A stretch of 61,141 nt of DNA, the filler included. It is 4 parts of 4 records of this genome, joined end to end, with 100 filler letters (N's around TTAATTAATTAA, not from the genome) between each part and the next. Parts side by side here need not be neighbours in the genome. Positions count along the whole stretch, not along the records: positions 1 to 11,218 come from DRR723986_4125; 3 more parts are not named here. One strand, written 5' to 3'. The notes under the pieces were generated by a model. That model worked only from the letters and a program-made list of their open reading frames with translations, was not told the origin of the DNA and searched no databases. This document shows, in pieces, positions 1 to 11,758 of this stretch. Position 1 is the first letter of the stretch, and every line of letters starts with the position of its first letter. A program made the position numbers and the translations under genes.

Positions 1-170
1 AGGAGCAACCGCCCCGGAAACTCTCAGGCAGAAGGACCGCATGAACTGCAACGCTCTGGAAAGCAGTGCTCCGCAAGTGGGTTTGCGGACTGCTCACCGA
101 AGGAGTAACCGAAAGGCGTCATCGGCGCCGGTCGGGAAATCTCTCAGGTACTCGGACAGAGGGGGTGCAG
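1..170 (+). ncRNA. Tandem glycine riboswitch (first aptamer truncated by window start)
   Basis: Two CTCTCAGG motifs (~21 and ~141); second aptamer has CTCTGGAAAG...CACCGAAGGAG...CTCTCAGG...GACAGAG; directly upstream of gcvT. Confidence 0.93.
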
Positions 171-231
171 ACGGATCAGGACCCATGCGGGCCGGTTCGG
201 GACTGCGCAACCCCGAATACGAGGACCGTTC

Positions 232-1383
232 ATGGCGGAAACCGTTGCAGACGAAGATCTGAAACAAACGCCTCTTCACGACCTTCATGTGGAACTGGGT
301 GCACGCATGGTGCCGTTTGCCGGCTATTCCATGCCCGTGCAGTACAAGGCCGGCATCATGGCCGAGCACCAGCAGACGCGCACGAAGGCCGGCCTTTTCG
401 ACGTCTCCCACATGGGCCAGGCCCTGTTGATCGGTCCCGATCACGAAACGACGGCCCGGGCTCTGGAAGCGCTGACCCCATCCAATTTCGTCGAACTTGG
501 CCACGGCCGTCAGCGCTACACGGTGCTGCTCAACGACGAAGGCGGCATTATCGACGATCTGATGGTCACCCGGCCGCTGTCCGAAGCAGAAGACGGAAAG
601 CTGATGCTGGTGGTCAATGCCTCCCGCAAGGATGTCGACTACGCCCATTTCCGCGACAGACTGCCTGAAAACGTGACCCTTGAAGTGATCGACGATCGTG
701 CGCTGATCGCGGTTCAGGGACCGGAAGCCGTGGCTGCGGTCGCAGCACATGCGCCCAGGGCGGCCGAACTTGGCTTCATGGCCGCCGCACCGATGGAGTT
801 TGACGGTATCGACTGCCACGTTGCCCGTGCCGGCTATACCGGCGAGGACGGCGTGGAGATGTCCGTGCCTGCCGGTGCTGCTGAAGCGATTGCCCGTGCA
901 CTGCTCGCCGACGACAGGGTCGAACCGATTGGGCTCGGGGCCCGCGACAGCCTGCGTCTTGAGGCAGGGCTGTGCCTCTACGGACACGACATTGACGAGA
1001 TGACGTCTCCCGTCGAAGGCGCGATCACCTTCTGCATGCAGAAGCGCCGCCGAGAAGAAGGCGGCTTTCCGGGCGCCGAACGCATTCAGGGCGAACTCGA
1101 AAAGGGACCGGGCCGAGTCCGCGTCGGCCTACGCCTCGATGGCAAGGCACCTGCGCGGGAAGGGGCCGAGATCGCACTGCCCGACGGGCCGGTGATCGGC
1201 ACCGTGACATCCGGCGGTTTCGCACCGACCGTGGGTGCCCCGATCGCAATGGGCTATGTCCCGGTGGAGTACTCCGAAACTGGCACGCCACTTGAATTGA
1301 TCGTCAGAGGCAAGCGCTTGCCCGCTACCGTCGCGGACATGCCGTTTGTTCCGAACCGGTATTACCGCAAACCCAAAGCATAA
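232..1383 (+). CDS. gcvT: Glycine cleavage system T protein (aminomethyltransferase)
   Basis: TPLHDLH, GLFDVSHMG, GYTGEDG, GLGARDSLRLEAG motifs; GAGGA RBS. Confidence 0.97.
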   Translation: MAETVADEDLKQTPLHDLHVELGARMVPFAGYSMPVQYKAGIMAEHQQTRTKAGLFDVSHMGQALLIGPDHETTARALEALTPSNFVELGHGRQRYTVLLNDEGGIIDDLMVTRPLSEAEDGKLMLVVNASRKDVDYAHFRDRLPENVTLEVIDDRALIAVQGPEAVAAVAAHAPRAAELGFMAAAPMEFDGIDCHVARAGYTGEDGVEMSVPAGAAEAIARALLADDRVEPIGLGARDSLRLEAGLCLYGHDIDEMTSPVEGAITFCMQKRRREEGGFPGAERIQGELEKGPGRVRVGLRLDGKAPAREGAEIALPDGPVIGTVTSGGFAPTVGAPIAMGYVPVEYSETGTPLELIVRGKRLPATVADMPFVPNRYYRKPKA

Positions 1384-1409
1384 ATCTTTCCAGATAACGG
1401 ACGCACAAT

Positions 1410-1781
1410 ATGACCACCTATTACTCCAAGGACCACGAGTGGATCGCCGTAGAAGGCGACAAAGCCACCATCGGCATCACGACTTACGCGCAGGAGCAGC
1501 TCGGCGACGTCGTTTACGTCGAACTGCCGGAAGCCGGCAAGGCGCTGTCACAGGGCGATGAAGCCGCCGTCGTGGAATCCGTCAAGGCCGCCAGTGAAGT
1601 CTACGCTCCGATCGACGGTGAAGTCGTTGAAGCCAACGATGCGCTGGTGGACGAGCCGGCCAAGGTGAACGAAGATCCCGAAGGCGCTGCATGGTTCATC
1701 AAGATGACCGTCGGCAATGCGGATCAGCTGTCCGACCTGATGGACGCGGCAGCCTACAAGGCGTACGTGGAGACGTTGTAA
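1410..1781 (+). CDS. gcvH: Glycine cleavage system H protein (lipoyl carrier)
   Basis: [12 protein letters not shown] lipoyl-lysine motif. Confidence 0.97.
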
Positions 1782-1784
1782 TTC

Positions 1785-2270
1785 ATGGCAGGGCACTACT
1801 ACACGGCACAGGTGGAATGGGCATGCGACGGCGACTATGCCGCAAACGCCTATTCCAGAGGGCACATCTGGCGTTTTGACGGTGGTTTGGAGATCCCGGC
1901 AAGCGCTTCGCCCACGGTGGTACCCCTGCCATATTCCATCGAGGCCGCCGTCGATCCGGAAGAGGCTTTCGTCGCCGCTATCTCCTCCTGCCACATGATG
2001 TCCTTCCTGGATCTTGCCCGGCGGGCGAATTTCGTTGTCGCCAGTTACAGCGACCGTGCCCAGGGCGAAATGAGTCGGGTGGCACGGGGCAAGATGGCAA
2101 TCACGAAAGTGGTGCTGCGACCGGTTATCACGCTGGTTGCGGCCGAGGACCCGGATCCGACCTGGCTGACCGATCTGCATGAAAAGGCGCATGACGTCTG
2201 TTTCATCGCCAACTCCGTGAAGTGCGAGATCGTTGTGGAGCCCGAACCGCTCCGCCTCGTCGCACCGTGA
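1785..2270 (+). CDS. OsmC/Ohr family peroxiredoxin-like protein
   Basis: DPEEAFVAAISSCHM and HEKAHDVCFIANSV with the two conserved Cys. Confidence 0.9.
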   Translation: MAGHYYTAQVEWACDGDYAANAYSRGHIWRFDGGLEIPASASPTVVPLPYSIEAAVDPEEAFVAAISSCHMMSFLDLARRANFVVASYSDRAQGEMSRVARGKMAITKVVLRPVITLVAAEDPDPTWLTDLHEKAHDVCFIANSVKCEIVVEPEPLRLVAP

Positions 2271-2483
2271 CTTTCCGGAACCGGCCGCACGAAGTCGCAG
2301 CCGGTTCCCTGTTCTGGATGGTGACCAGTTCTCTTCTCTGTGCGTCTGCACAGCGCCACCGCGCCGAGCAGGAAACGGGGAGCCCGTATCCGGAAGCTTG
2401 TCAGTTCTCCGGTTCCGGGCTGATGAAGCGAGAGCGTGGTTTTCGCCGGTCCGATTTTTGATCAAACCCTTGGGAGCTGCCTG

Positions 2484-3830
2484 ATGCGCTACCTGCCTTT
2501 GAACGATACCGACCGCAGCGACATGCTCGCGCGTGTCGGCGTCAAATCCGTCGATGAACTCTTTGCGGATATCCCTGAAGACGTTCGCATGAAGGGTCTG
2601 CTCGACCTTCCCAAACGAGCCAGCGAAATGGAAGTGGAGCGCAAGCTCTCTGCCATGGCATCGAAGAACACTGCGGCCGGCTCCGTACCGTTCTTCGTCG
2701 GCGCAGGTGCCTACAAGCACCATGTGCCGGCAACGGTCGACCACCTGATCCAGCGGTCGGAGTTCCTGACCTCCTATACGCCCTATCAGCCGGAAATCAC
2801 GCAAGGTACGCTTCAGTACCTGTTCGAGTTCCAGACCCAGGTAGCGCGCCTTACCGCAATGGATGTCGCCAACGCGTCCATGTATGACGGCTCCACCGGC
2901 ACCGGTGAAGCCGTGCTGATGGCGCACCGGGTGACCAAGCGCAACAAGGCCGTGCTTTCCGGCGGGCTGCATCCGCAGTACCGGGAAGTCGTCGAAGGCC
3001 TGTCCAACATGGCCGGCGATCGGGTCGTCAGCCTGCCGGCAGACCCGACGGGCACCGAAGACATCCTGTCACAGATCGATGACGAGACGTCTTGCGTTGT
3101 CGTCCAGTCGCCGTCGTTCTATGGCCAGCTGATCGACCTGAAGCCGATTGCCGAAAAGGCGCACCAGCACAAGGCGCTGCTGATCGCGGTCTTCACAGAA
3201 GTGGTGTCGCTCGGCCTGATCGAACCGCCGGGAACACAAGGCGCGGATATCGTGGTCGGTGAAGGCCAGTCCATCGGCAACGGCCTCAATTTCGGTGGTC
3301 CTTATGTCGGTCTCTTCGCCACCCGCCAGCAATATGTCCGCCAGATGCCGGGCCGGCTCTGCGGTGAGACGGTGGATGCGGAAGGCAAGCGCGGTTTCGT
3401 GCTGACGCTGTCCACCCGCGAACAGCATATCCGCCGCGACAAGGCAACGTCGAACATCTGCACCAACTCCGGTCTCTGCTGCCTTGCCTTCACCATTCAC
3501 ATGTCGCTGTTGGGGCAGGCCGGGTTGACCAAACTCGCCCGCATCAACCATGGCAACGCGGTGAAGCTGAAGAAGCTTCTTGCCGGCGTGCCTGGTGTCG
3601 AGGTTCTGAACTCGGCCTATTTCAACGAGTTCACGATTGCGCTGCCGAAGGTGGCCGAGGACGTGGTCGAGCAACTGGCCGAACGTGGCGTTCTCGCGGG
3701 CCTGCCGGTCTCACGCCTGGAGCCGGGCAGCAAGGATCTCGCGAACCTGTTGGTCGTCGCGTCGACCGAAGTCAATACGGATGAAGACCGCGCGGCCTTT
3801 GCGGACGCGCTGAAGGAGGTGCTGGCATGA
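2484..3830 (+). CDS. gcvPA: Glycine dehydrogenase subunit 1
   Basis: MRYLP start (ATG 2484 preferred over 2436), [36 protein letters not shown]. Confidence 0.96.
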
Positions 3831-5419
3831 GCATGAACACGCAAGGCCGCCCGACCGCAGCAGGTGATGCCGGGGATGCTTTCCGCCCGAAGACCTTCAC
3901 CGGCAACCGTGGTCTCGATATGGAAGAGCCGCTGATTTTCGAATTCGGCTCGCTGGAAACCACCGGCGTCGATCTCGACGAGGACGAAAGCGCCGAGTTC
4001 GAGCTTGGCAGCTTCAAGCGCAAGGCCGAGATCGGTCTGCCGGGCCTCGCCGAACCGGAAGCCATGCGCCACTATGTGCGCCTGTCGCGGAACAACTATG
4101 CCATCGACAGCGGTCTCTATCCGCTCGGCTCGTGCACCATGAAGCACAATCCGCGCCTCAACGAGAAAATGGCCCGTCTGCCGGGCTTCGCGGACATCCA
4201 TCCGCTTCAGCCGGTCTCCTCGGTGCCCGGCGCACTGGAACTGATCGATGCGCTTGCCCACTGGCTGATGGTGTCCACCAACACCTCCGCCGTCGCGATG
4301 AGCCCGAAAGCCGGTGCCCATGGCGAATTGTGCGGTATGATGGCAATCAAGGCAGCCCACACTGCTGCCGGTCGTGATCCGAAGATCGTTCTGGTGCCGG
4401 AAAGCGCCCATGGCACCAACCCGGCAACGGCAGCGCTCTTGGGTTACAAGGTCGTCAACATCGATGCCAAGGACGACGGGACCGTCGATCTGGAGGCACT
4501 GAAGAAGACCATTGCCGAACACGAAGGCAACATCGCCGGCATCATGCTGACCAACCCGAACACCTGCGGGCTGTTCGAACGGGAAGTGAAGCAGATCGCC
4601 GATCTGATTCACAAGGCGGATGCCTATTTCTACTGCGATGGCGCCAACTTCAACGCCATCGTCGGCAAGGCCCGCCCGGGAGATCTTGGCGTCGACGCCA
4701 TGCATATCAACCTGCACAAGACCTTCTCGACGCCTCACGGCGGCGGTGGCCCGGGTTCCGGTCCGGTCGTCCTGTCCCAGAGACTGGCTCCTTTCGCGCC
4801 GTTGCCGTTCATCCGCAAGACGGAAAAAGGTGTCGAACTGGTCGAAACCGAAGCTGCCACCAAGGACGGCGAGCAGCCATTCGGCCGCATGACCGCGTTC
4901 CACGGCCAGATGGGCATGTACGTGCGGGCTCTGTCCTACATGATGAGCCACGGCTCCGACGGTCTGCGGCAGGCGTCTGAAGATGCGGTGCTGAATGCGA
5001 ACTATATTCGCGTCGGCCTGCAGGACCTGATGAGCCTGCCCTTTGGCGAGCGTCCTTGCATGCACGAAGTGCTGTTCGACGACAGCTTCCTGAAGGACAC
5101 CGGCGTGACCACGCTCGACTTCGCCAAGGCGATGATCGACGAGGGCTATCATCCGATGACCATGTACTTCCCGCTGGTTGTCCATGGCGCGATGCTGATC
5201 GAGCCGACGGAATCGGAAAGCCGGGCTGCGCTCGACCTTTTCGTCGCCACCATGCGCGATCTCGTGATGAGTGCAAAGCGCGGCGAAACGGAACGCTTCT
5301 CCGGCGCACCGTACCTTGCCCCGCGCCGCCGTCTGGACGAAACGGGTGCAGCTCGCAAGCCGGTCCTGAAATGGACCGAGCCGGCTCCGGCCGAAGTGAC
5401 CCCGGCTGCTGCCGAGTAG
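3827..5419 (+). CDS. gcvPB: Glycine dehydrogenase subunit 2
   Basis: [32 protein letters not shown] lysine; ATGA overlap with gcvPA. Confidence 0.96.
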
Positions 5420-5443
5420 CGCGGGGACAAATTTTCAAGGATG

Positions 5444-5470
5444 AAAACCCCGGCTTCGGCCGGGGTTTTT
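5444..5470 (+). terminator. Rho-independent terminator of gcv operon
   Basis: AAAACCCCGGC-TTCG-GCCGGGGTTTTT. Confidence 0.88.
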
Positions 5471-5637
5471 AGTTTCCATGTCCGTCAGTTTGTCTACTCG
5501 GACATTCGCTGCGCTCCTTCCGGGCAGAAGGAGTCTGCCATCTTCATCGTGTTCTCTCTCACACTTCTAAGGTCCCTGATTCAAACAGCGCTGGGTATCT
5601 GGTTGGACCAAGTTCAAAAACAACGGCGAAAATCTTA

Positions 5638-5676
5638 TTGACAATATAAATGTCAAAATGACATATAAATTGTCAA
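5638..5676. promoter_or_regulatory. Two tandem TGACA-N7-TGTCA palindromes, likely MarR operators overlapping the promoter
   Basis: TTGACAatataaaTGTCAA (5638-5656) and aTGACAtataaatTGTCAA (5658-5676), just upstream of a MarR gene. Confidence 0.7.
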
Positions 5677-5687
5677 ATGAGGTGCAC

Positions 5688-6155
5688 ATGAAAAAATCCG
5701 TAGAGCTTTATGAAATCATCCGCCTGATACGCCCCGTGCACCGCCGGCTTGCGCGGGCGGTGGAGGCCAAGCTGGAGGGAACCGGCGTGACCGTCGGTAT
5801 GCGAGCGGTCATGGAAGTGCTGGAGGAGGCCGGGCCGATGGCGGTACCCGAGATCGGCCGGGCGCTGTTTCTTGCCCGCCAGCAGATCCAGCTGCTGATG
5901 AACGCTCTGGAAGAGCAGGGACTGGTCGAGCGCCGGGCCAATCCGGCGCACAAGCGATCACCACTGTTTGCCTTGAACGAATCGGGGCACGACCGGTTCG
6001 GCGAAATCCGGGCACGGGAGACTGACGAAATCGAGACAGTCTGCGAGCTCTTCTCGGACGACGATTTGCGTTCCACGCAGCGGGTGCTCTGCACCATGCT
6101 TGATCATTTTGCCGCGTTCGAGGACGACCCGGATCGGCCCAAGGCACTGGAATAA
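5688..6155 (+). CDS. MarR family transcriptional regulator
   Basis: Winged HTH, GLVERRANPAHKRS; start 5688 follows a GAGGTG RBS. Confidence 0.88.
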   Translation: MKKSVELYEIIRLIRPVHRRLARAVEAKLEGTGVTVGMRAVMEVLEEAGPMAVPEIGRALFLARQQIQLLMNALEEQGLVERRANPAHKRSPLFALNESGHDRFGEIRARETDEIETVCELFSDDDLRSTQRVLCTMLDHFAAFEDDPDRPKALE

Positions 6156-6177
6156 TTTCACGAACAGGAGAGGTCAC

Positions 6178-6822
6178 ATGACCGGTATCTGGATTGCGGC
6201 CGGGCTCTGTGCCGCAGGCGTTGTCGCCTATATCGTTTATTGCCTGCGGCGGCTGGGAACGCCGACCAAGGGCGCAAGCATCGACAGGTCAATGCGGCCA
6301 GGCACGGCTCTGGTGGTCATCGACGTGCAGGAGGACTTCACCAGGAACACCGGCAAACACGCTTTTGACCCAGGCCAGAGAGACGCCGTGCTTGCCGAAA
6401 TAGGACGCCAGGTGGAAGCGCACCGGATGGCAGGCCACCAGGTCGCTTTCGTCAAGAATGTCTTCCGCGACTGGCCGGTGATCGTGGCCATGAAGATGTC
6501 GGCGGGCGGTATCGGCACACCGGGGCGAGACGGTTTGAAGCTCGACCGAACACTTGCTGTCGGCAATGCTCCGGTCTTTGAGAAGTCGATCGGTGACAGT
6601 TTCTCCAGTCCGCAATTTGAAGCCTGGCTTGAGGAAAAGCGGATCGGACGGCTGGTCCTGGTTGGGCTTGATGCCTGTCATTGCGTTCAGCTGACCGCAA
6701 AGGGTGCGTTGAACCGGGGATATGACGTCGAAATCAGGGATCCTGCGACACTAACCACGACGCCGGACAGATGGACGGACCTCAAAGGCGAGTTGGGCAA
6801 ACTCGGCGCAGCCTTCGCCTGA
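6178..6822 (+). CDS. Isochorismatase/cysteine hydrolase with N-terminal membrane anchor
   Basis: ALVVIDVQEDF, K...DSFS, GLDACHCV; AGGAGAGG RBS before ATG 6178. Confidence 0.85.
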   Translation: MTGIWIAAGLCAAGVVAYIVYCLRRLGTPTKGASIDRSMRPGTALVVIDVQEDFTRNTGKHAFDPGQRDAVLAEIGRQVEAHRMAGHQVAFVKNVFRDWPVIVAMKMSAGGIGTPGRDGLKLDRTLAVGNAPVFEKSIGDSFSSPQFEAWLEEKRIGRLVLVGLDACHCVQLTAKGALNRGYDVEIRDPATLTTTPDRWTDLKGELGKLGAAFA

Positions 6823-6864
6823 AACAGGCGCAGTCGGAGCCATGTCCGGCTGCGCTTGAAGGCC

Positions 6865-7569
6865 TCAGTGTGCGACCAGGAGTGATCGCTCCCGGCTGCG
6901 CAAGTCGAGAAGTTGGGAGATCCAGCTATTTCGGTTTTGCAGAAAGGCGGTCAAAAGCGCTGGATAGTCCGCAGTAACTGCTTCTTGAACCGATGTACGG
7001 GCCGCAAGCTTGCCACGCCACGCAAGAACCCGGTCGAGGTCGTCAAACATTTCAAGCGTCAAGAACGTCTCAAAGACATCGAAATAGCGGAACACCGGGG
7101 CGAAAGCCGCATCGACGAGCGAAAAGGCTCTGCCGGCGAAGAAGGGACCGTCCGGATCAAGTTCGCCTTCCAGATGACGGAACTTTGCACGAAGTGCTTC
7201 ACCCGCAGCATAAAACCCGGTGTCGTCCCTGGCGTTGTAGAGCGCGCCGATGCCGTTCAGGATCTGCGAGGCGAATTCGATATAGGCCCGGTGCCGCGCG
7301 CGTTCGGCAGGGTCTTCCGGGTGCAGCCGGCTCCCTTCTGTCTCGTCCAGGAATTCGACGATCGGGGCGGATTCGAAGAGATAGCGATCACCACCCAGTT
7401 TCAGCAGCGGCACCTTGCCGAGTGGTGAGGCCGCGCGGAACCAGTCAGGTTTGTCGGCAAGGTCGATGGTAACCCGGTCAAACGGAACATTCTTTTCATG
7501 AAGGACGATCGCCGCGCGCTGCACGTAAGGGCAAAGCGCATGGCTGATCAGGGTAAGTGTGTCGGGCAT
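6865..7569 (-). CDS. Glutathione S-transferase family protein
   Basis: SHALCPYVQR, PLGKVPLL, LFESAPI; GGAG RBS before ATG 7569. Confidence 0.92.
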   Translation of the reverse strand: MPDTLTLISHALCPYVQRAAIVLHEKNVPFDRVTIDLADKPDWFRAASPLGKVPLLKLGGDRYLFESAPIVEFLDETEGSRLHPEDPAERARHRAYIEFASQILNGIGALYNARDDTGFYAAGEALRAKFRHLEGELDPDGPFFAGRAFSLVDAAFAPVFRYFDVFETFLTLEMFDDLDRVLAWRGKLAARTSVQEAVTADYPALLTAFLQNRNSWISQLLDLRSRERSLLVAH

Positions 7570-7580
7570 CTGGAAACTCC

Positions 7581-7644
7581 TTTTCATGCATCTGCATCAA
7601 GATGGATGCAGATGCATGAAAAATCAAGATTGATGCAATTGCAT
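7581..7644. promoter_or_regulatory. Three ATGCA-N2-TGCAT palindromes, likely MarR operators in a divergent promoter
   Basis: 7586-7597, 7606-7617, 7633-7644; the first two lie in an 18-bp-arm perfect inverted repeat (7581-7598/7605-7622). Confidence 0.72.
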
Positions 7645-7664
7645 AAATTTTCTATTTCTTGTCC

Positions 7665-8108
7665 ATGAGCAATTCCGCCGAAACCGTCCCTAAGGCCATC
7701 GACGCCTGGGCCCGTCTGCAGCGTGCAAGCGGCAACGTGCTGGCACGGGTCGAGGCACGCCTGAAGGCGGCCGGTTTCCCACCTCTTGGTTGGTACGATG
7801 TGCTGCTGGAATTAAGCCGGGCAGAGGACAAAACTCTGCGACCGGTCGAAATCGAAAAGCGGATGCTGCTGGCCCAGTACAATGTTTCGCGCCTGCTCGA
7901 CCGGCTGGCCGCTGCGGGCTACATCGAAAAGCTGAAGAGCCCGGAAGACGGTAGAGGTGTCTCGGTGCGTCTGACCCAGGAAGGGGAGATGCTCTTGAAG
8001 GCCATGTGGCCGTGTTACCGGGCAGCGGTGGAAACCGAATTCACAAGGCATCTGGAGCCGGGGGACACCGAAGCGCTCTGGAGGGTGCTGGGCAAACTGG
8101 TGCAGTGA
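7665..8108 (+). CDS. MarR family transcriptional regulator
   Basis: WYDVLLEL, YNVSRLLDRL, EDGRG wing motif; divergent from GST; start may be 7659. Confidence 0.9.
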   Translation: MSNSAETVPKAIDAWARLQRASGNVLARVEARLKAAGFPPLGWYDVLLELSRAEDKTLRPVEIEKRMLLAQYNVSRLLDRLAAAGYIEKLKSPEDGRGVSVRLTQEGEMLLKAMWPCYRAAVETEFTRHLEPGDTEALWRVLGKLVQ

Positions 8109-8205
8109 CGTCTGTTCCCGGGGAGTGAACACACTGTTTCCGCATGACAGGCCAAAACATGCGTATAAGGTCGGCAAACCTTCTCTCTGACCGGACCTGA
8201 AACCC

Positions 8206-8790
8206 ATGACCAACACCACCAATCTGGATGAACGGACCGGACTTCCGCAGGAGTGGCTGTTCCTTCTGAAAGAACATCCGCGCGAAGACTGGCCGGGTCA
8301 CCGGAACCTCGGCCCACTGACCGAATTCTGGCTCGCACGGCATAATGGCTTCCGTCAGCTCGGTGCTGACCTGGATACGATCCTGACCGACTTCCGCGAA
8401 CAACGGCTCCCGGTAAACCGTTTCGGCAACCTCTTTGCACCGCGTCTGCAACAGTTTCTCAGTGAGCTGCATCACCACCACATGATCGAGGATGAGCACT
8501 ATTTCCCGGTGTTCATGGAAGCCGAAAAGCGCCTGGTGGATGGCTTCGAGCTGCTGGAGGGCGACCACGAACTGATCCACCATCGCATTGAGGCGGTGAT
8601 CAAGAGCGCCAACAAGCTGTTCGGGCAATTGCAGACGAAAGACCGCGATGCCATCCGCCGCGCGGCCGACAGTTTCGCCGGTGTCAGCGACACCCTGATC
8701 TCCGGCCTGATGCGCCATCTGGATGACGAGGAAGACCTGATCGTTCCGGTTATCCTGGATCGCGGCGAACGGAAACTCGGGTTGTCGTAA
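8206..8790 (+). CDS. Hemerythrin/HHE cation-binding domain protein
   Basis: H...HHHHMIEDEHYFP...DHELIH...HLDDEEDLIVP pattern. Confidence 0.85.
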   Translation: MTNTTNLDERTGLPQEWLFLLKEHPREDWPGHRNLGPLTEFWLARHNGFRQLGADLDTILTDFREQRLPVNRFGNLFAPRLQQFLSELHHHHMIEDEHYFPVFMEAEKRLVDGFELLEGDHELIHHRIEAVIKSANKLFGQLQTKDRDAIRRAADSFAGVSDTLISGLMRHLDDEEDLIVPVILDRGERKLGLS

Positions 8791-8951
8791 CGCGGCCAGA
8801 TGTGCGGAAGCGCACGCCTGTCGCCCTGGGTTAGGTGGGATTTCTTGACCGCGCGCAGCCTTGAGGCATTCCGGTTACACTTGCCGGGGTCTGGAACGTC
8901 ACGAACACAACAGGCTTGACTCTTTTCCCGCCCTAACGCATTTAAGCTGGC

Positions 8952-9017
8952 ATGACCAAGATGAGCGCATCCTTCGTGTATTTTTATTACGTCACCGACA
9001 TACCGGCGGCTGCGTAG
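8952..9017 (+). CDS. Putative tyrS leader (attenuator) peptide MTKMSASFVYFYYVTDIPAAA
   Basis: ATG 8952 (alternative 8961) to TAG 9015-9017; TTC GTG TAT TTT TAT TAC control-codon cluster; followed by a terminator and tyrS. Confidence 0.75.
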   Translation: MTKMSASFVYFYYVTDIPAAA

Positions 9018-9043
9018 GATCTTGTTCACCCCATAGACACCTC

Positions 9044-9070
9044 AAAAGCCGCCGCGTCAGGCGGCTTTTT
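9044..9070 (+). terminator. Attenuator terminator in tyrS leader
   Basis: AAAAGCCGCC-GCGTCA-GGCGGCTTTTT; left arm can alternatively pair with GGCGGCT 9005-9011. Confidence 0.8.
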
Positions 9071-9118
9071 GGTTTCTAGAGACCCGAGCTTCCTGGCGGG
9101 GGAACCAGGAAGCGAAAA

Positions 9119-10396
9119 ATGACCAGACATATGATCGAAGCCGGCAAACCGGCGACAAAACTCAAATCGGAAGCACTTGCCGTGCTTCTGGAACGTGGTC
9201 TTGTGCACCAATGCACGGATATCGAGGCGCTCGACCAGACGCTGTCACAAGGGCCGATCACCGCATACGCCGGGTTCGATGCCACGGCGGCAAGTCTTCA
9301 TGTCGGCCATCTGATGCCGTTGATGACCATGCGTTGGCTGCAGAAGCTCGGCCATCGTCCCATCGTCGTGCTTGGCGGTGGTACCAGTCAGATCGGCGAT
9401 CCGAGTTTCCGCAAGGATGCCCGGCCGATGCTGGAAGAACGTCAGATCGCAGCCAACATCGCAAGCATACGACGATCCGTTGAGCGTCTCGTGGATATGA
9501 ACGGCGAAGATGGGGCTTTGCTGGTCGACAATGCGGAATGGCTCAATGAATTCCGCTTCCTGGAATTCCTCCGCGACTATGGCTCCCAGTTCACAGTCAA
9601 CCGCATGATGACCTTCGACAGCGTCAAGTCGCGCCTCGATGCTCAGATGCCGCTGACGGTTCTGGAGTTCTGCTACATGATGCTGCAGGCCGTTGATTTT
9701 CTGGAGTTGGCAAAGCGTCATGACTGTGCGCTACAGGTCGGTGGATCCGATCAATGGGGCAACATCGTCAATGGTGTGGAACTCGGCCGCCGTGATGGCC
9801 GCAAGTTGCACGGCCTCACTGTTCCTCTGCTGACCACCGCCAGCGGTGCGAAGATGGGCAAGACGGCTGCGGGTGCCGTGTGGTTGCATCCCGAACACCT
9901 GTCGCCCTTCGGCTTCTGGCAGTTCTGGCGCAACACCGCCGATGCAGATGTCGCCAAGTGCCTGCGCCTTTTTACCGAGCTGCCGATGAGCGAAATCGAA
10001 CGACTTGCGGCGCTGGAAGGGGCGGAGCTGAACGAAGCCAAGAAGATCCTGGCAACCCAGGTGACGGCAATCGTACATGGCCCGGAAGAAGCGCGCGGCG
10101 CCTTGCAGCAAGGCGATGCCCTGTTTTCGGGCGAGGGCGAAATCCTGGAACCGACCCACAGTCTGCCGCTGAAAATTCTGGCAGACGGTCTCGGTCTTCT
10201 GGAGCTTGTGGTCGCGGTCGGCTTCGCGGCATCCAACGGCGAAGCGCGGCGGCTGGTGGAAGGTGGAGGCGTTCGCCTCAACAACCAGATCGTCGACGAC
10301 GCGCGCCGCCGCATTGCCACCGGCGATCTTCAGGCCAACGACCGTTTATCGATTTCTGTCGGCAAACGCCGCAAGGCCCTGGTCGGCTTCGAGTGA
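9119..10396 (+). CDS. tyrS: Tyrosyl-tRNA synthetase
   Basis: YAGFDATAASLHVGH (HIGH), QVGGSDQWGNI, KMGKT (KMSKS), C-terminal S4 domain. Confidence 0.96.
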   Translation: MTRHMIEAGKPATKLKSEALAVLLERGLVHQCTDIEALDQTLSQGPITAYAGFDATAASLHVGHLMPLMTMRWLQKLGHRPIVVLGGGTSQIGDPSFRKDARPMLEERQIAANIASIRRSVERLVDMNGEDGALLVDNAEWLNEFRFLEFLRDYGSQFTVNRMMTFDSVKSRLDAQMPLTVLEFCYMMLQAVDFLELAKRHDCALQVGGSDQWGNIVNGVELGRRDGRKLHGLTVPLLTTASGAKMGKTAAGAVWLHPEHLSPFGFWQFWRNTADADVAKCLRLFTELPMSEIERLAALEGAELNEAKKILATQVTAIVHGPEEARGALQQGDALFSGEGEILEPTHSLPLKILADGLGLLELVVAVGFAASNGEARRLVEGGGVRLNNQIVDDARRRIATGDLQANDRLSISVGKRRKALVGFE

Positions 10397-10402
10397 GGCC
10401 GG

Positions 10403-10963
10403 TCAGACGGCTTTTGCATCATCGATCAGAACGGCCGGCTCCAGCCGGCCGTTGTAGCCGAAGACCTTCCCGATCAGCGGGAAGGTCACCTCTACGGTGA
10501 AACTGTACCTTCCATCGACAACACGCTCGCGCCCGACCGCTCTCGGAGCAAGGCGCAGCGGCAGCGGAAGCGGTCCAAGCGAAACCTCTGTCGGGGTGAT
10601 GTCGATGCCCTTGTCACTTGCCGTTACCCGCATCTTGAACAGGAACGGTCCAAGGCGCTCGAGCATGCAGGGATACGCTTCGCCTTTACCGGCCATCATG
10701 TCGGTCTGGAACGGCTGCCCGTCGAACCGCCGGGTCCAGCGCTCTCCACCCACGATAGGTTCAAAGCTGGTCTCGACCGGAACACCCATCTGTGCTTCCG
10801 GCAACTTCGCTAGCCGGCAGATCAGTCTTGCGCCCGACGAGCTTCCCCGGGTGACATCCGCGGTGCCCCGCGCCACCCGCGCGAAGCTGTGCATCCGCCG
10901 GATTTCTGCCGGTACCTTGTCGAACTCGGGGCCGAGGATGGTTTGATAAAGCGTGCGGGGCAT
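10403..10963 (-). CDS. DUF4166-like protein
   Basis: LYQTILGPEF...H, ERWTRRF, ERLGPF, YNGRL pattern resembles DUF4166; start taken at ATG 10963. Confidence 0.65.
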   Translation of the reverse strand: MPRTLYQTILGPEFDKVPAEIRRMHSFARVARGTADVTRGSSSGARLICRLAKLPEAQMGVPVETSFEPIVGGERWTRRFDGQPFQTDMMAGKGEAYPCMLERLGPFLFKMRVTASDKGIDITPTEVSLGPLPLPLRLAPRAVGRERVVDGRYSFTVEVTFPLIGKVFGYNGRLEPAVLIDDAKAV

Positions 10964-11106
10964 GTGAGAACTGCTTTGATGTCGTTGTGTCTTCTCAGAC
11001 AGATCATTCTCGCGTCGATTGGACAACAGCAAAAACTCTTTGCACTTGTTTGGTGACGTCCAGATGAGCACCATTCAGCCTTCCAATCATCCCCCTCCAC
11101 TTCCTC

Positions 11107-11218
11107 CGTCATGCCATGGCCCGACCATGGCATCCATGCCATTCCCCATCCGCCAATTGAAGCTTCTGGCTGAGGCACGGTCACGGCGTGGATTGCAGGG
11201 TCAAGCCCTGCAATGACG
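11107..11218. repeat. Inverted pair of CGTC-type REP-like palindromes
   Basis: CGTCATGCCATGG-CCCGA-CCATGGCATCCA (11107-11136) and TGGATTGCAGGG-TCAAG-CCCTGCAATGACG (11189-11218), at the contig end. Confidence 0.75.
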
Positions 11219-11318
11219 NNNNNNNNNNNNNNNNNNNNNNNNNNNNNNNNNNNNNNNNNNNNTTAATTAATTAANNNNNNNNNNNNNNNNNNNNNNNNNN
11301 NNNNNNNNNNNNNNNNNN
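11219..11318. other. Artificial contig spacer
   Basis: N44-TTAATTAATTAA-N44; stop codons in all six frames. Confidence 0.97.
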
Positions 11319-11320
11319 AT

Positions 11321-11758
11321 GAGACGTTCTCCCACAATGAAGACGCCGAATATGATGAACGCGTGGCGCAGGCAGGCGGTAAAATCTTCCTCGATTCAGA
11401 AATCCGCATCCGCTACATCCCGCGCGGTTCCGTCAGCCGCCTGGCGAAGCAGTACTTCAATTATGGTAAAGGCCGTGCCCGCAACGTTCGCAAGCATGGC
11501 CAGCGTCTCAAGATCCGTCAGGCCCTGCCTGTTTTCGCCCTTTTGGCGAACGCTGCCGGATTTCTGGTGTCACCCCTATTCCTGCCCGCCCTCATTCTGC
11601 CACTTGGCTACTTCGGCGTCCTGGCCACCGCTTCGGTGGCCGTCGCAGTCTGGAAACGGTCTCCGTGCGGCCTCTTGGCCGGCCTGATTTCCGGGACCAT
11701 GCACATGAGCTGGGCGGCGGGCTTTCTTAGTGAAGCGGTGGCCGGAACCAGGCGCTGA
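11321..11758 (+). CDS. GT2 glycosyltransferase, ExoA-like, 5'-truncated by gap
   Basis: Frame open from contig start: ETFSHNEDAEYD...LAKQYFNYGKGRARN plus C-terminal TM helices and MHMSWAAGF. Confidence 0.8.
   Translation, partial: ETFSHNEDAEYDERVAQAGGKIFLDSEIRIRYIPRGSVSRLAKQYFNYGKGRARNVRKHGQRLKIRQALPVFALLANAAGFLVSPLFLPALILPLGYFGVLATASVAVAVWKRSPCGLLAGLISGTMHMSWAAGFLSEAVAGTRR

Follow-up and report, generated by a model that had tools for sequence, protein, structure and literature searches.

A candidate ribosome-mediated leader-peptide attenuator upstream of an accessory tyrosyl-tRNA synthetase gene in Roseibium and its relatives

Aminoacyl-tRNA synthetase genes can be controlled by the charging state of their own tRNAs. 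Here, we describe a stretch of DNA of 61,141 nucleotides (the window; filler included, with positions 1 to 11,218 coming from DRR723986_4125), in which a gene for a tyrosyl-tRNA synthetase (TyrRS), tyrS, is preceded by a 21-codon open reading frame (ORF) rich in tyrosine codons and by an intrinsic terminator. From comparative and thermodynamic evidence, we propose that this element is a ribosome-mediated leader-peptide attenuator, responding to charged tRNA-Tyr and governing an accessory tyrS, a reading to which we assign a probability of roughly 0.78. In Roseibium and its relatives, the spare tyrS would most likely be switched on upon a shortage of charged tRNA-Tyr. Every defining feature of trpL/pheL/pheM/hisL-type attenuators that can be examined in a sequence was found at this locus, and the anatomy, conservation, fixed spacing, and energetics of the element are direct results of the analysis.

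Results

A conserved leader ORF with an in-frame run of tyrosine codons

An initial annotation of this stretch, made from its letters, had described the small ORF with its run of Tyr and Phe codons, the terminator behind it, and an exact complementarity between the left arm of that terminator (AGCCGCC; 9047 to 9053) and the end of the ORF (GGCGGCT; 9005 to 9011). When the window was re-read, all coordinates of the ORF proved exact and the complementarity was correct, and a terminator scan returned positions 9044 to 9069 plus a T run (Table 1). The leader stop codon ends 101 nt 5' of the tyrS ATG on the same strand, and in the commonest leader an extra Phe codon lies two codons 5' of the Tyr-Phe-Tyr-Tyr run. 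Among the 917 ATG-started ORFs of 10 to 60 codons in the six frames of the window, the leader ORF (with a nested start at 8961) was the sole one with at least three Tyr residues within four. The region from 8945 to 9080 folds at -51.1 kcal/mol, compared with -35.4 +/- 3.7 kcal/mol for 200 dinucleotide shuffles (z = -4.2; 0/200 as good).

Table 1. Positions of the tyrS leader elements in the window
Feature	Position	Strand	Basis or remark
-35 box TTGACT of the leader promoter	8916-8921	+	Conserved distance to the leader ATG
Putative -10 region ATTTAA	8940-8945	+	Promoter geometry; predicted start at about 8952, the A of the ATG
Leader ORF MTKMSASFVYFYYVTDIPAAA, 21 codons	8952-9017	+	ATG start; homologues in relatives; probably leaderless
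Outer helix, 5' arm	8953-8962	+	Covers the start codon and codons 2 to 4; partner 9019-9028
Regulatory codons TAT TTT TAT TAC (Tyr-Phe-Tyr-Tyr)	8979-8990	+	Block in frame with the ATG in 74/74 sequences
Segment 1, 5' arm of the inner protector (anti-antiterminator) hairpin	8989-8997	+	Inside the predicted footprint of a ribosome stalled on the Tyr codons
Segment 2, core GGCGGCT at 9005-9011	9004-9015	+	Pairs with segment 1 or with the terminator left arm
Outer helix, 3' arm	9019-9028	+	Directly after the leader stop codon
Intrinsic terminator	9044-9070	+	Segment 3, 9044-9053; loop, 9054-9059; segment 4, 9060-9069; T run, 9066-9070
Hairpin with the tyrS Shine-Dalgarno sequence AGGAAG in its 3' arm	9088-9113	+	Between the terminator and tyrS
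tyrS, accessory tyrosyl-tRNA synthetase paralogue, 425 aa	9119-10396	+	Pfam tRNA-synt_1b and S4

A search with the TyrRS of the window against one genome per species yielded 80 loci, 73 of which showed at least 65% TyrRS identity. These 73 loci were derived from Roseibium/Labrenzia, Stappia, Pannonibacter, Pseudovibrio, Polycladidibacter, and other Stappiaceae, and all of them (73/73) carried the terminator core together with an ATG-started small ORF containing a Tyr-containing aromatic run. The leader ORF with its terminator was found in none of the seven more distant loci (54 to 57% TyrRS identity), and the combination of a Tyr-run ORF and a terminator was found in none of 39 other tyrS loci (i.e., these 7, 28 from the order, and 4 canonical second copies). 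Tyr-containing small ORFs occur near two other tyrS genes, one without a terminator (L089) and one with a terminator (L114); we take the latter to resemble the C-terminal end of an upstream gene with its own terminator.

The 68 distinct leader ORFs span 17 to 27 codons. Their aromatic runs read YFYY in 45 cases, YYY (with no Phe in the run) in 14, YYF in 3, FYY in 2, FYYY in 1, and YF, as part of VYF, in 3 (L051, L054, and L064; for L051, the script had picked an earlier FY, and the run beside segment 1 is VYF). Tyr is the only residue common to every run: the run holds three Tyr residues in 60 ORFs, two in 5, and a single one in 3. Overall, Tyr accounts for 13.2% of leader residues, compared with 2.4% in 22 long ORFs of the window.

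The reading frame of the run is conserved as well. A T(A/T)(T/C) block, searched without regard to frame, was in frame with the leader ATG in all 74 leader sequences, at distances of 15, 27, 30, 33, 45, and 48 nt (all multiples of three), and ATG was the start codon in each of the 74. Among the 38 distinct 21-codon ORFs, residues 2 to 7 vary freely, and codon changes in the stretch F-V-Y-F-Y-Y-V are mainly third-base synonymous, with the exception of one ORF that has GTT at codon 10 and TAT at codon 11. In codons 15 to 21 of the same ORFs, the first and second bases vary and the third is fixed, as under an RNA pairing constraint. Over the whole leader ORF, no excess of third-base entropy was observed (0.29, 0.31, and 0.32), a result that gives no help to the coding claim. 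The conservation of the Tyr codons in the upstream regions of relatives and the compensatory changes in the protector stems (see below) agree with what the initial annotation had anticipated from such an alignment.

No Rfam family matched the leader at threshold; the best of 13 weak matches was rnk_pseudo (24.1 bits versus 55). The leader is not a member of Phe_leader (RF01859; pheL of pheA), for which it scored 19.4 bits against a threshold of 55 (E = 1.1), and the T-box covariance model gave no match on either strand of positions 8700 to 9250, even at E values up to 10. Assembled RNA contigs from 23 runs contain the stretch (assemblies cannot show starts, ends, or levels). In three of the four RNA runs whose contigs were compared, a single contig spans the whole region; in study X9, a contig ending at 8950 is followed by another that starts at 8977, a single-study gap that is no proof of a start or of termination.

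Promoter and probable leaderless start

A TTGAC(A/T) box lies 35 to 37 nt 5' of the leader ATG in 67 of the 74 sequences. The most frequent distance is 36 nt (46 sequences), followed by 37 nt (14) and 35 nt (7); in the remaining 7 sequences, the box is odd or was mis-picked by the regular expression. The spacer between this -35 box and the putative -10 region is 17 to 18 nt, and no GGAG-like Shine-Dalgarno sequence is present in the 6 nt before the leader ATG of the window. Because the box is placed at such a constant distance from the ATG, the leader mRNA is probably leaderless, with transcription starting at the A of the leader ATG. In Sinorhizobium meliloti, all mapped leaderless mRNAs (171/171) begin with AUG, and the -10 region is poorly conserved (PMC3616915).

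Predicted terminator, antiterminator, and protector pairings

According to the terminator scan, the terminator stem has 10 base pairs (6 G-C), encloses a loop of 6 nt, and is followed by a T run. All 72 distinct sequences (72/72) share an identical core (AGCCGCC...GGCGGCT). The stem has a predicted energy of -17.6 kcal/mol, versus -14.6 kcal/mol for the 8-bp antiterminator (9004 to 9011 with 9047 to 9054). When a ribosome was masked on any of the three Tyr codons of the window and the transcript was ended at 9059, the minimum-energy fold was the antiterminator (9002/9004 to 9011 with 9047 to 9054/9056); when the ribosome was masked at the leader stop codon, the fold was the terminator. Masking at these two places gave the two outcomes that the initial annotation had described, and the stalled-ribosome fold was the antiterminator in 65 of the 72 sequences.

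For the protector hairpin, the initial annotation, which had paired 8988 to 8997 and 8969 to 8973 imperfectly with 9004 to 9020, was roughly right in location and needed correction in detail. The minimum-energy fold pairs 8965 to 8981 with 9000 to 9015 and 8957 to 8962 with 9019 to 9024, and the pairing kept in relatives is that of 8989 to 8997 with 9004 to 9015. Within this inner hairpin, 8989 to 8992/9012 to 9015 is 98.9% paired in the 72 sequences, with compensatory changes at two pairs, and 8995 to 8997/9004 to 9006 is 85.6% paired. The GCGG of segment 2 is invariant in the leader alignment.

The outer helix pairs the 5' end of the leader, including the AUG, with the stretch after segment 2 or after the stop codon, and the helix varies in sequence from lineage to lineage. 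With the plain MAFFT alignment as input, RNAalifold recovers only the invariant terminator and a 4-bp helix, the outer helix being misaligned between lineages; therefore, we turned to folds of individual lineages, to a duplex test of cognate against non-cognate arms, and to a model-fitted alignment. Among 22 hand-picked representatives, cognate arms of the outer helix paired at -13.5 kcal/mol versus -11.1 kcal/mol for non-cognate arms, and 0 of 20,000 permutations were as low. In the plain MAFFT alignment of the 72 sequences, 89.5% of cells were paired, versus 29 to 50% with the partners slid. The model-fitted alignment, which is biased toward the structure used for fitting, gave 85.5% versus 33 to 48% with the partners slid (32 of the 74 sequences), and 12 of its 26 pairs were changed on both sides (5/500 shuffles as high). 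For the outer helix in that alignment, 8 of 9 pairs were changed on both sides, with only 74% of cells paired.

The distance between the control codons and segment 2 is nearly constant. Counted from the first base of the last Tyr codon, the interval to the GCGG core of segment 2 is 18 nt in 66 of the 72 sequences and 21 nt in the remaining 6. The leader stop codon, by contrast, varies in position: relative to the start of segment 2, it lies downstream by 24, 15, or 9 nt or upstream by 3 nt. The footprint of a stalled ribosome extends about 12 to 15 nt past the A-site codon and would therefore cover segment 1, with its edge just short of GGCGGC. A fixed distance from control codon to segment 2 is what a stalled-ribosome ruler would predict. 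Together, the conserved in-frame Tyr run, this fixed ruler, the invariant terminator, and the masked-ribosome antiterminator support the classical 1:2/2:3/3:4 attenuator layout put forward in the initial annotation.

The terminator stem AGCCGCC/GGCGGCT recurs one to three more times per genome in four genomes, with other loops, as ordinary terminators. The possibility that the terminator is a genome-wide repeat was considered and rejected; the copy with a GCGTCA/GCGTA loop is found only at tyrS. Single-base variants occur in the terminator left arm of L129 (GCCGCA; genome G213) and in segment 2 of L130 (GGTGGC; genome G186), the latter keeping its pairing via G-U.

The putatively controlled gene is an accessory tyrS

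The TyrRS of the window contains the catalytic domain (PF00579, tRNA-synt_1b; 8.1e-70) and the C-terminal tRNA-binding domain (PF01479, S4; 3.9e-08), and the HVGH and KMGKT motifs are present in its translation. Four Stappiaceae genomes each encode two tyrS genes, one of the leader type and one intact canonical copy of 417 aa (48 to 51% identity). None of these four canonical second copies (L111, 1504 to 2757 in G001; L112, 1519 to 2772 in G002; L113; and L114) is preceded by a leader ORF with a terminator.

In a sample of 151 genomes from the order, 147 had a TyrRS match. The leader type was present in two of these, both of which also carry the other copy, and no other match exceeded 57% identity among the matches listed. 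None of 28 tyrS loci from the order, scanned in the correct orientation, had a Tyr-run ORF with a terminator. At the family level, 102 of 132 genomes carry a leader-type tyrS and 30 carry the canonical copy only. The canonical gene is also present in 101 of the 102 leader-type genomes, the exception being a genome of 3.1 Mb. The Tyr leader and terminator accompany the leader-type tyrS in all 102 genomes; 100 show the strict segment-2-plus-terminator pattern, and the other 2 carry the leader with one substitution.

In a quick, unrooted maximum-likelihood tree, leader-type TyrRS sequences form one clade with 100% support on a long branch. This clade lies outside all other sampled alphaproteobacterial TyrRS sequences, and the canonical copies nest within the order. 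These sequence comparisons indicate that the regulated tyrS is a divergent second paralogue, restricted to a subset of the Stappiaceae, and is not the housekeeping gene.

A hairpin over the tyrS Shine-Dalgarno sequence

Between the terminator and tyrS, a further hairpin (-16.6 kcal/mol; z = -3.4) holds the Shine-Dalgarno sequence of tyrS in its 3' arm. All 14 lineage representatives that were folded (14/14) show a Shine-Dalgarno hairpin of this arrangement, with stems that differ in sequence (free energies of -8 to -18.6 kcal/mol; z = -0.2 to -3.6). We considered and rejected the idea that the antiterminator state frees the Shine-Dalgarno sequence: with either the terminator or the antiterminator forced, its probability of being unpaired was 0.003 to 0.005. 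In these folds, then, the hairpin stays closed in both states and shows no coupling to the attenuator.

The T run of the terminator and the bases that follow it (9066 to 9076; TTTTTGGTTTC, conserved in Roseibium) are complementary to the tyrS Shine-Dalgarno sequence and spacer (9108 to 9118). In several relatives (L005, L010, L011, L020, L021, L027, and L028), long-range pairing of this type beats the local hairpin in the minimum-energy fold.

Neighboring genes and unusual loci

Directly upstream of the leader and on the same strand, the window encodes a MarR-family regulator (7659 to 8108) and a hemerythrin-domain protein (8206 to 8790). Only part of Roseibium has retained the MarR and/or hemerythrin neighbor, and Pannonibacter, Pseudovibrio, and others lack it; we therefore rejected the MarR-hemerythrin neighborhood as a part of the system, as it is not conserved across the family. 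The tyrZ gene of Bacillus subtilis likewise has a MarR regulator as its partner, perhaps by coincidence. A glutathione S-transferase (GST) gene lies further upstream (6865 to 7587, minus strand), and a gene for a DUF4166 protein (10403 to 11074, minus strand), which is kept in some Roseibium loci only, converges on the end of tyrS. A run of N's at about 11215 to 11330 (masked or unsequenced) appears as X in several ORF translations.

Two loci have an unusual structure. In L127 (genome G234), the promoter, leader, and terminator are duplicated (702 to 823 and 3982 to 4103; 3.28 kb apart). The first copy lies behind the hemerythrin gene, and next to come are an oxidoreductase-like ORF of 479 aa, a GST fragment, and the MarR gene. 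The second copy precedes tyrS; this duplication looks like an insertion carrying a leader copy. In L128 (genome G178; 2600 to 2800, minus strand), the leader (MSRKQSTFSYVYFTVAHIRAARVSYCF), the terminator, and the Shine-Dalgarno hairpin are kept, and only a C-terminal fragment of a leader-type tyrS lies downstream. The leader-type tyrS of G178 is a decaying copy.

Discussion

Proposed mechanism

We infer a model that joins a transcription start, translation of the leader, termination, and a response to tyrosine. Transcription would start at the A of the leader AUG, and a ribosome would load on the emerging 5' end. With plentiful Tyr-tRNA, the ribosome would pass the Tyr codons (8979 to 8990) and either cover segment 2 or let the 1:2 pairing re-form behind it. 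With segment 2 covered or re-paired, the terminator (9044 to 9070) would form, and transcription would stop about 50 nt before tyrS. With scarce Tyr-tRNA, the ribosome would stall on the Tyr codons, its footprint covering segment 1 and ending just 5' of segment 2. The free GGCGGCU could then pair with AGCCGCC as the latter leaves the polymerase, no terminator would form, and tyrS would be transcribed. If the leader is not translated at all, the protector hairpins (i.e., the 1:2 pairing and the outer helix that buries the AUG) would hold segment 2, leading to termination by default.

Evidence against the model and alternative explanations

Several observations weigh against a tyrosine-sensing attenuator. 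The terminator always wins at equilibrium, and the model therefore needs kinetic control; the leader of the Escherichia coli trp operon shows a similar relation between antiterminator and terminator energies. The antiterminator was not the minimum-energy fold in 7 of the 72 stalled folds. Segments 2, 3, and 4 are invariant and offer no covariation for the 2:3 and 3:4 pairings, for which conservation is therefore the evidence. In 7 of the 72 sequences, the U tract is poor (L046 to L048, TTGCATGG; L059 and L066, TTAAGTG; and L052 and L063, TTGTTCATT), which makes intrinsic termination doubtful there. The leader promoter was not listed by a scan with an E. coli-type consensus. In 64 of the 68 ORFs, the +2 frame likewise stays open throughout this stretch, and frame openness alone is therefore weak evidence. 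In addition, the locked Shine-Dalgarno sequence in the predicted folds means that read-through alone may not yield protein. The last group of such points concerns the signal itself: the commonest run (YFYY; 45/68) includes Phe, with a further Phe codon two codons upstream; the three VYF leaders have a single Tyr beside a single Phe; and the aroR leader of Corynebacterium glutamicum (Phe-Tyr-Phe, upstream of aroF) was reported to answer Phe limitation, not Tyr limitation (PMC11802643).

These last points would suit an attenuator of the same layout whose signal is phenylalanine or aromatic amino acids generally, with stalling on Phe codons counting equally or more. We regard such a signal as unlikely, given that Tyr alone is present in every run (three times in 60 of the 68 distinct leaders), that 14 of the 68 have YYY without Phe, that segment 2 keeps a set distance from the last Tyr codon in 66 of 72 sequences, and that the controlled gene charges tRNA-Tyr. 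An RNA switch working independently of translation, in which a protein (e.g., TyrRS), a tRNA, or a small molecule binds the U/A-rich block and GGCGGC and the ORF is incidental, would account for the very high nucleotide conservation from the Tyr block to segment 2, for the open +2 frame, and for the first- and second-base variation in codons 15 to 21, which points to an RNA constraint rather than a coding one. It would leave unexplained why the block stays in frame with an invariant ATG at six different distances (74/74), why that ATG keeps a fixed distance from the -35 box, and why the block changes in length by whole codons (VYF, VYYY, and VYFYY). The lack of an Rfam family at threshold and of a T-box match at E values up to 10 also speaks against it, as does the length of the leader, which at about 120 nt is short for a T box. 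We consider this explanation decidedly improbable.

The fate of the element where its gene has been lost or displaced bears on whether tyrS is its principal target. G178 keeps the leader despite its decayed tyrS, and G234 has a second leader copy with no tyrS behind it; both would be expected if the terminated 120-nt RNA or the 21-residue peptide were the main product and acted in trans, with the control of tyrS being secondary, as in the case of rnTrpL/peTrpL of Sinorhizobium, also an alphaproteobacterium (PMC6614838, PMC7298713, and PMC10117765). The N-terminal half of the peptide is not conserved, however, the element is strictly linked to the leader-type tyrS in 102 of 102 genomes, and no trans target came to light, none having been looked for, leaving this explanation only a very slim chance. 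An action in trans would also be compatible with control in cis. The recurrence of the same stem, with other loops, as an ordinary terminator in each of four genomes might also suggest a chance ORF beside the terminator of the upstream hemerythrin gene. This can be virtually dismissed: a promoter-like -35 box separates the hemerythrin gene from the ORF, the ORF is conserved in 73 of 73 loci, and the element remains with tyrS in lineages without the hemerythrin neighbor.

Comparison with known systems

Leader-peptide attenuators are textbook examples of regulation for Trp, His, Phe, Leu, Thr, and Ile/Val, and pheST is the classical leader-peptide case among aminoacyl-tRNA synthetase genes. The E. 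coli pheM leader has a ribosome-binding site. T boxes control tyrS in Firmicutes and are not known from Proteobacteria. In line with the initial annotation, our full-text literature searches found no Tyr leader peptide for tyrS, no proteobacterial tyrS attenuator, and no leader-peptide attenuator with a reported response to tyrosine, a provisional result.

The closest precedents each share part of the proposed design. The trp attenuator of S. meliloti is transcribed as a leaderless small mRNA that begins with trpL's AUG (PMC10117765 and PMC6614838). Like the Tyr leader, trpL/rnTrpL (before trpE(G)) is alphaproteobacterial and combines a short leader ORF, regulatory codons, alternative hairpins, and an intrinsic terminator; unlike the Tyr leader, it carries Trp codons and precedes a biosynthetic gene rather than an aminoacyl-tRNA synthetase paralogue. 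Its leaderless start has been mapped, whereas that of the Tyr leader is predicted from promoter geometry. In E. coli, pheST is controlled by attenuation through the pheM leader, a peptide with a high content of the cognate amino acid (PMC11802643, citing Springer et al. 1985). As proposed here, low charging of the cognate tRNA raises transcription of the synthetase gene in that system, but pheM and pheL contain Phe codons and are gammaproteobacterial.

In B. subtilis, tyrZ, which encodes a second TyrRS, is under the control of a T box and a MarR regulator (PMC9437257; its reference Williams-Wagner et al. 2015). The parallels with the Tyr leader are a second TyrRS, tRNA-Tyr charging as the signal, a terminator/antiterminator leader, and, in part of Roseibium, a MarR gene just upstream. 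In a T box, however, uncharged tRNA binds the leader RNA directly, whereas the Tyr codons described here would be read by a translating ribosome. The aroR leader of C. glutamicum shares a Tyr codon in its regulatory run and is the only such leader peptide that we found in the literature; it differs in being actinobacterial, in controlling aromatic biosynthesis, and in its reported response to Phe. Polycysteine leaderless short ORFs of mycobacteria resemble the Tyr leader as attenuators of downstream genes that are rich in one amino acid (10.1101/834739), but they use cysteine and belong to another phylum. An actinobacterial survey of regions upstream of synthetase genes reports candidate T boxes only for ileS (PMC1262725). 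Beyond the initial annotation, the new points are the probable leaderless start, the accessory tyrS paralogue as the target, and the conserved Shine-Dalgarno hairpin.

A possible back-up synthetase and broader significance

The presence of two tyrS genes raises a more far-reaching scenario, which we offer tentatively and regard as possible but doubtful when all of its parts are taken jointly: the attenuator would switch on a back-up TyrRS upon failure of Tyr-tRNA charging, through two locks in series. The canonical tyrS, which has no attenuator leader, would be kept for housekeeping, and the divergent second enzyme would be made only when charging fails, either from a shortage of tyrosine or because the housekeeping enzyme is poisoned (e.g., by a natural TyrRS inhibitor, D-tyrosine, or a tyrosine analogue). 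The second TyrRS would then differ in selectivity or resistance. The Tyr attenuator would be the first lock, and the Shine-Dalgarno hairpin, needing a second signal, would be the second. If true, this arrangement would be a proteobacterial, ribosome-read counterpart of the T-box-controlled tyrZ of Bacillus.

If the tyrosine attenuator itself is confirmed, it would add Tyr sensing to the known leader-peptide attenuators and provide a second example for a synthetase gene. The set of 102 genomes, with its peptide variants, fixed 18-nt ruler, and moving stop codon, offers material on the constraints on attenuator geometry. The accessory TyrRS of the Stappiaceae may hint that natural TyrRS inhibitors or tyrosine analogues occur where these marine bacteria live, and its leader, if confirmed, would represent a route by which Proteobacteria couple a spare synthetase to the charging of its own tRNA.

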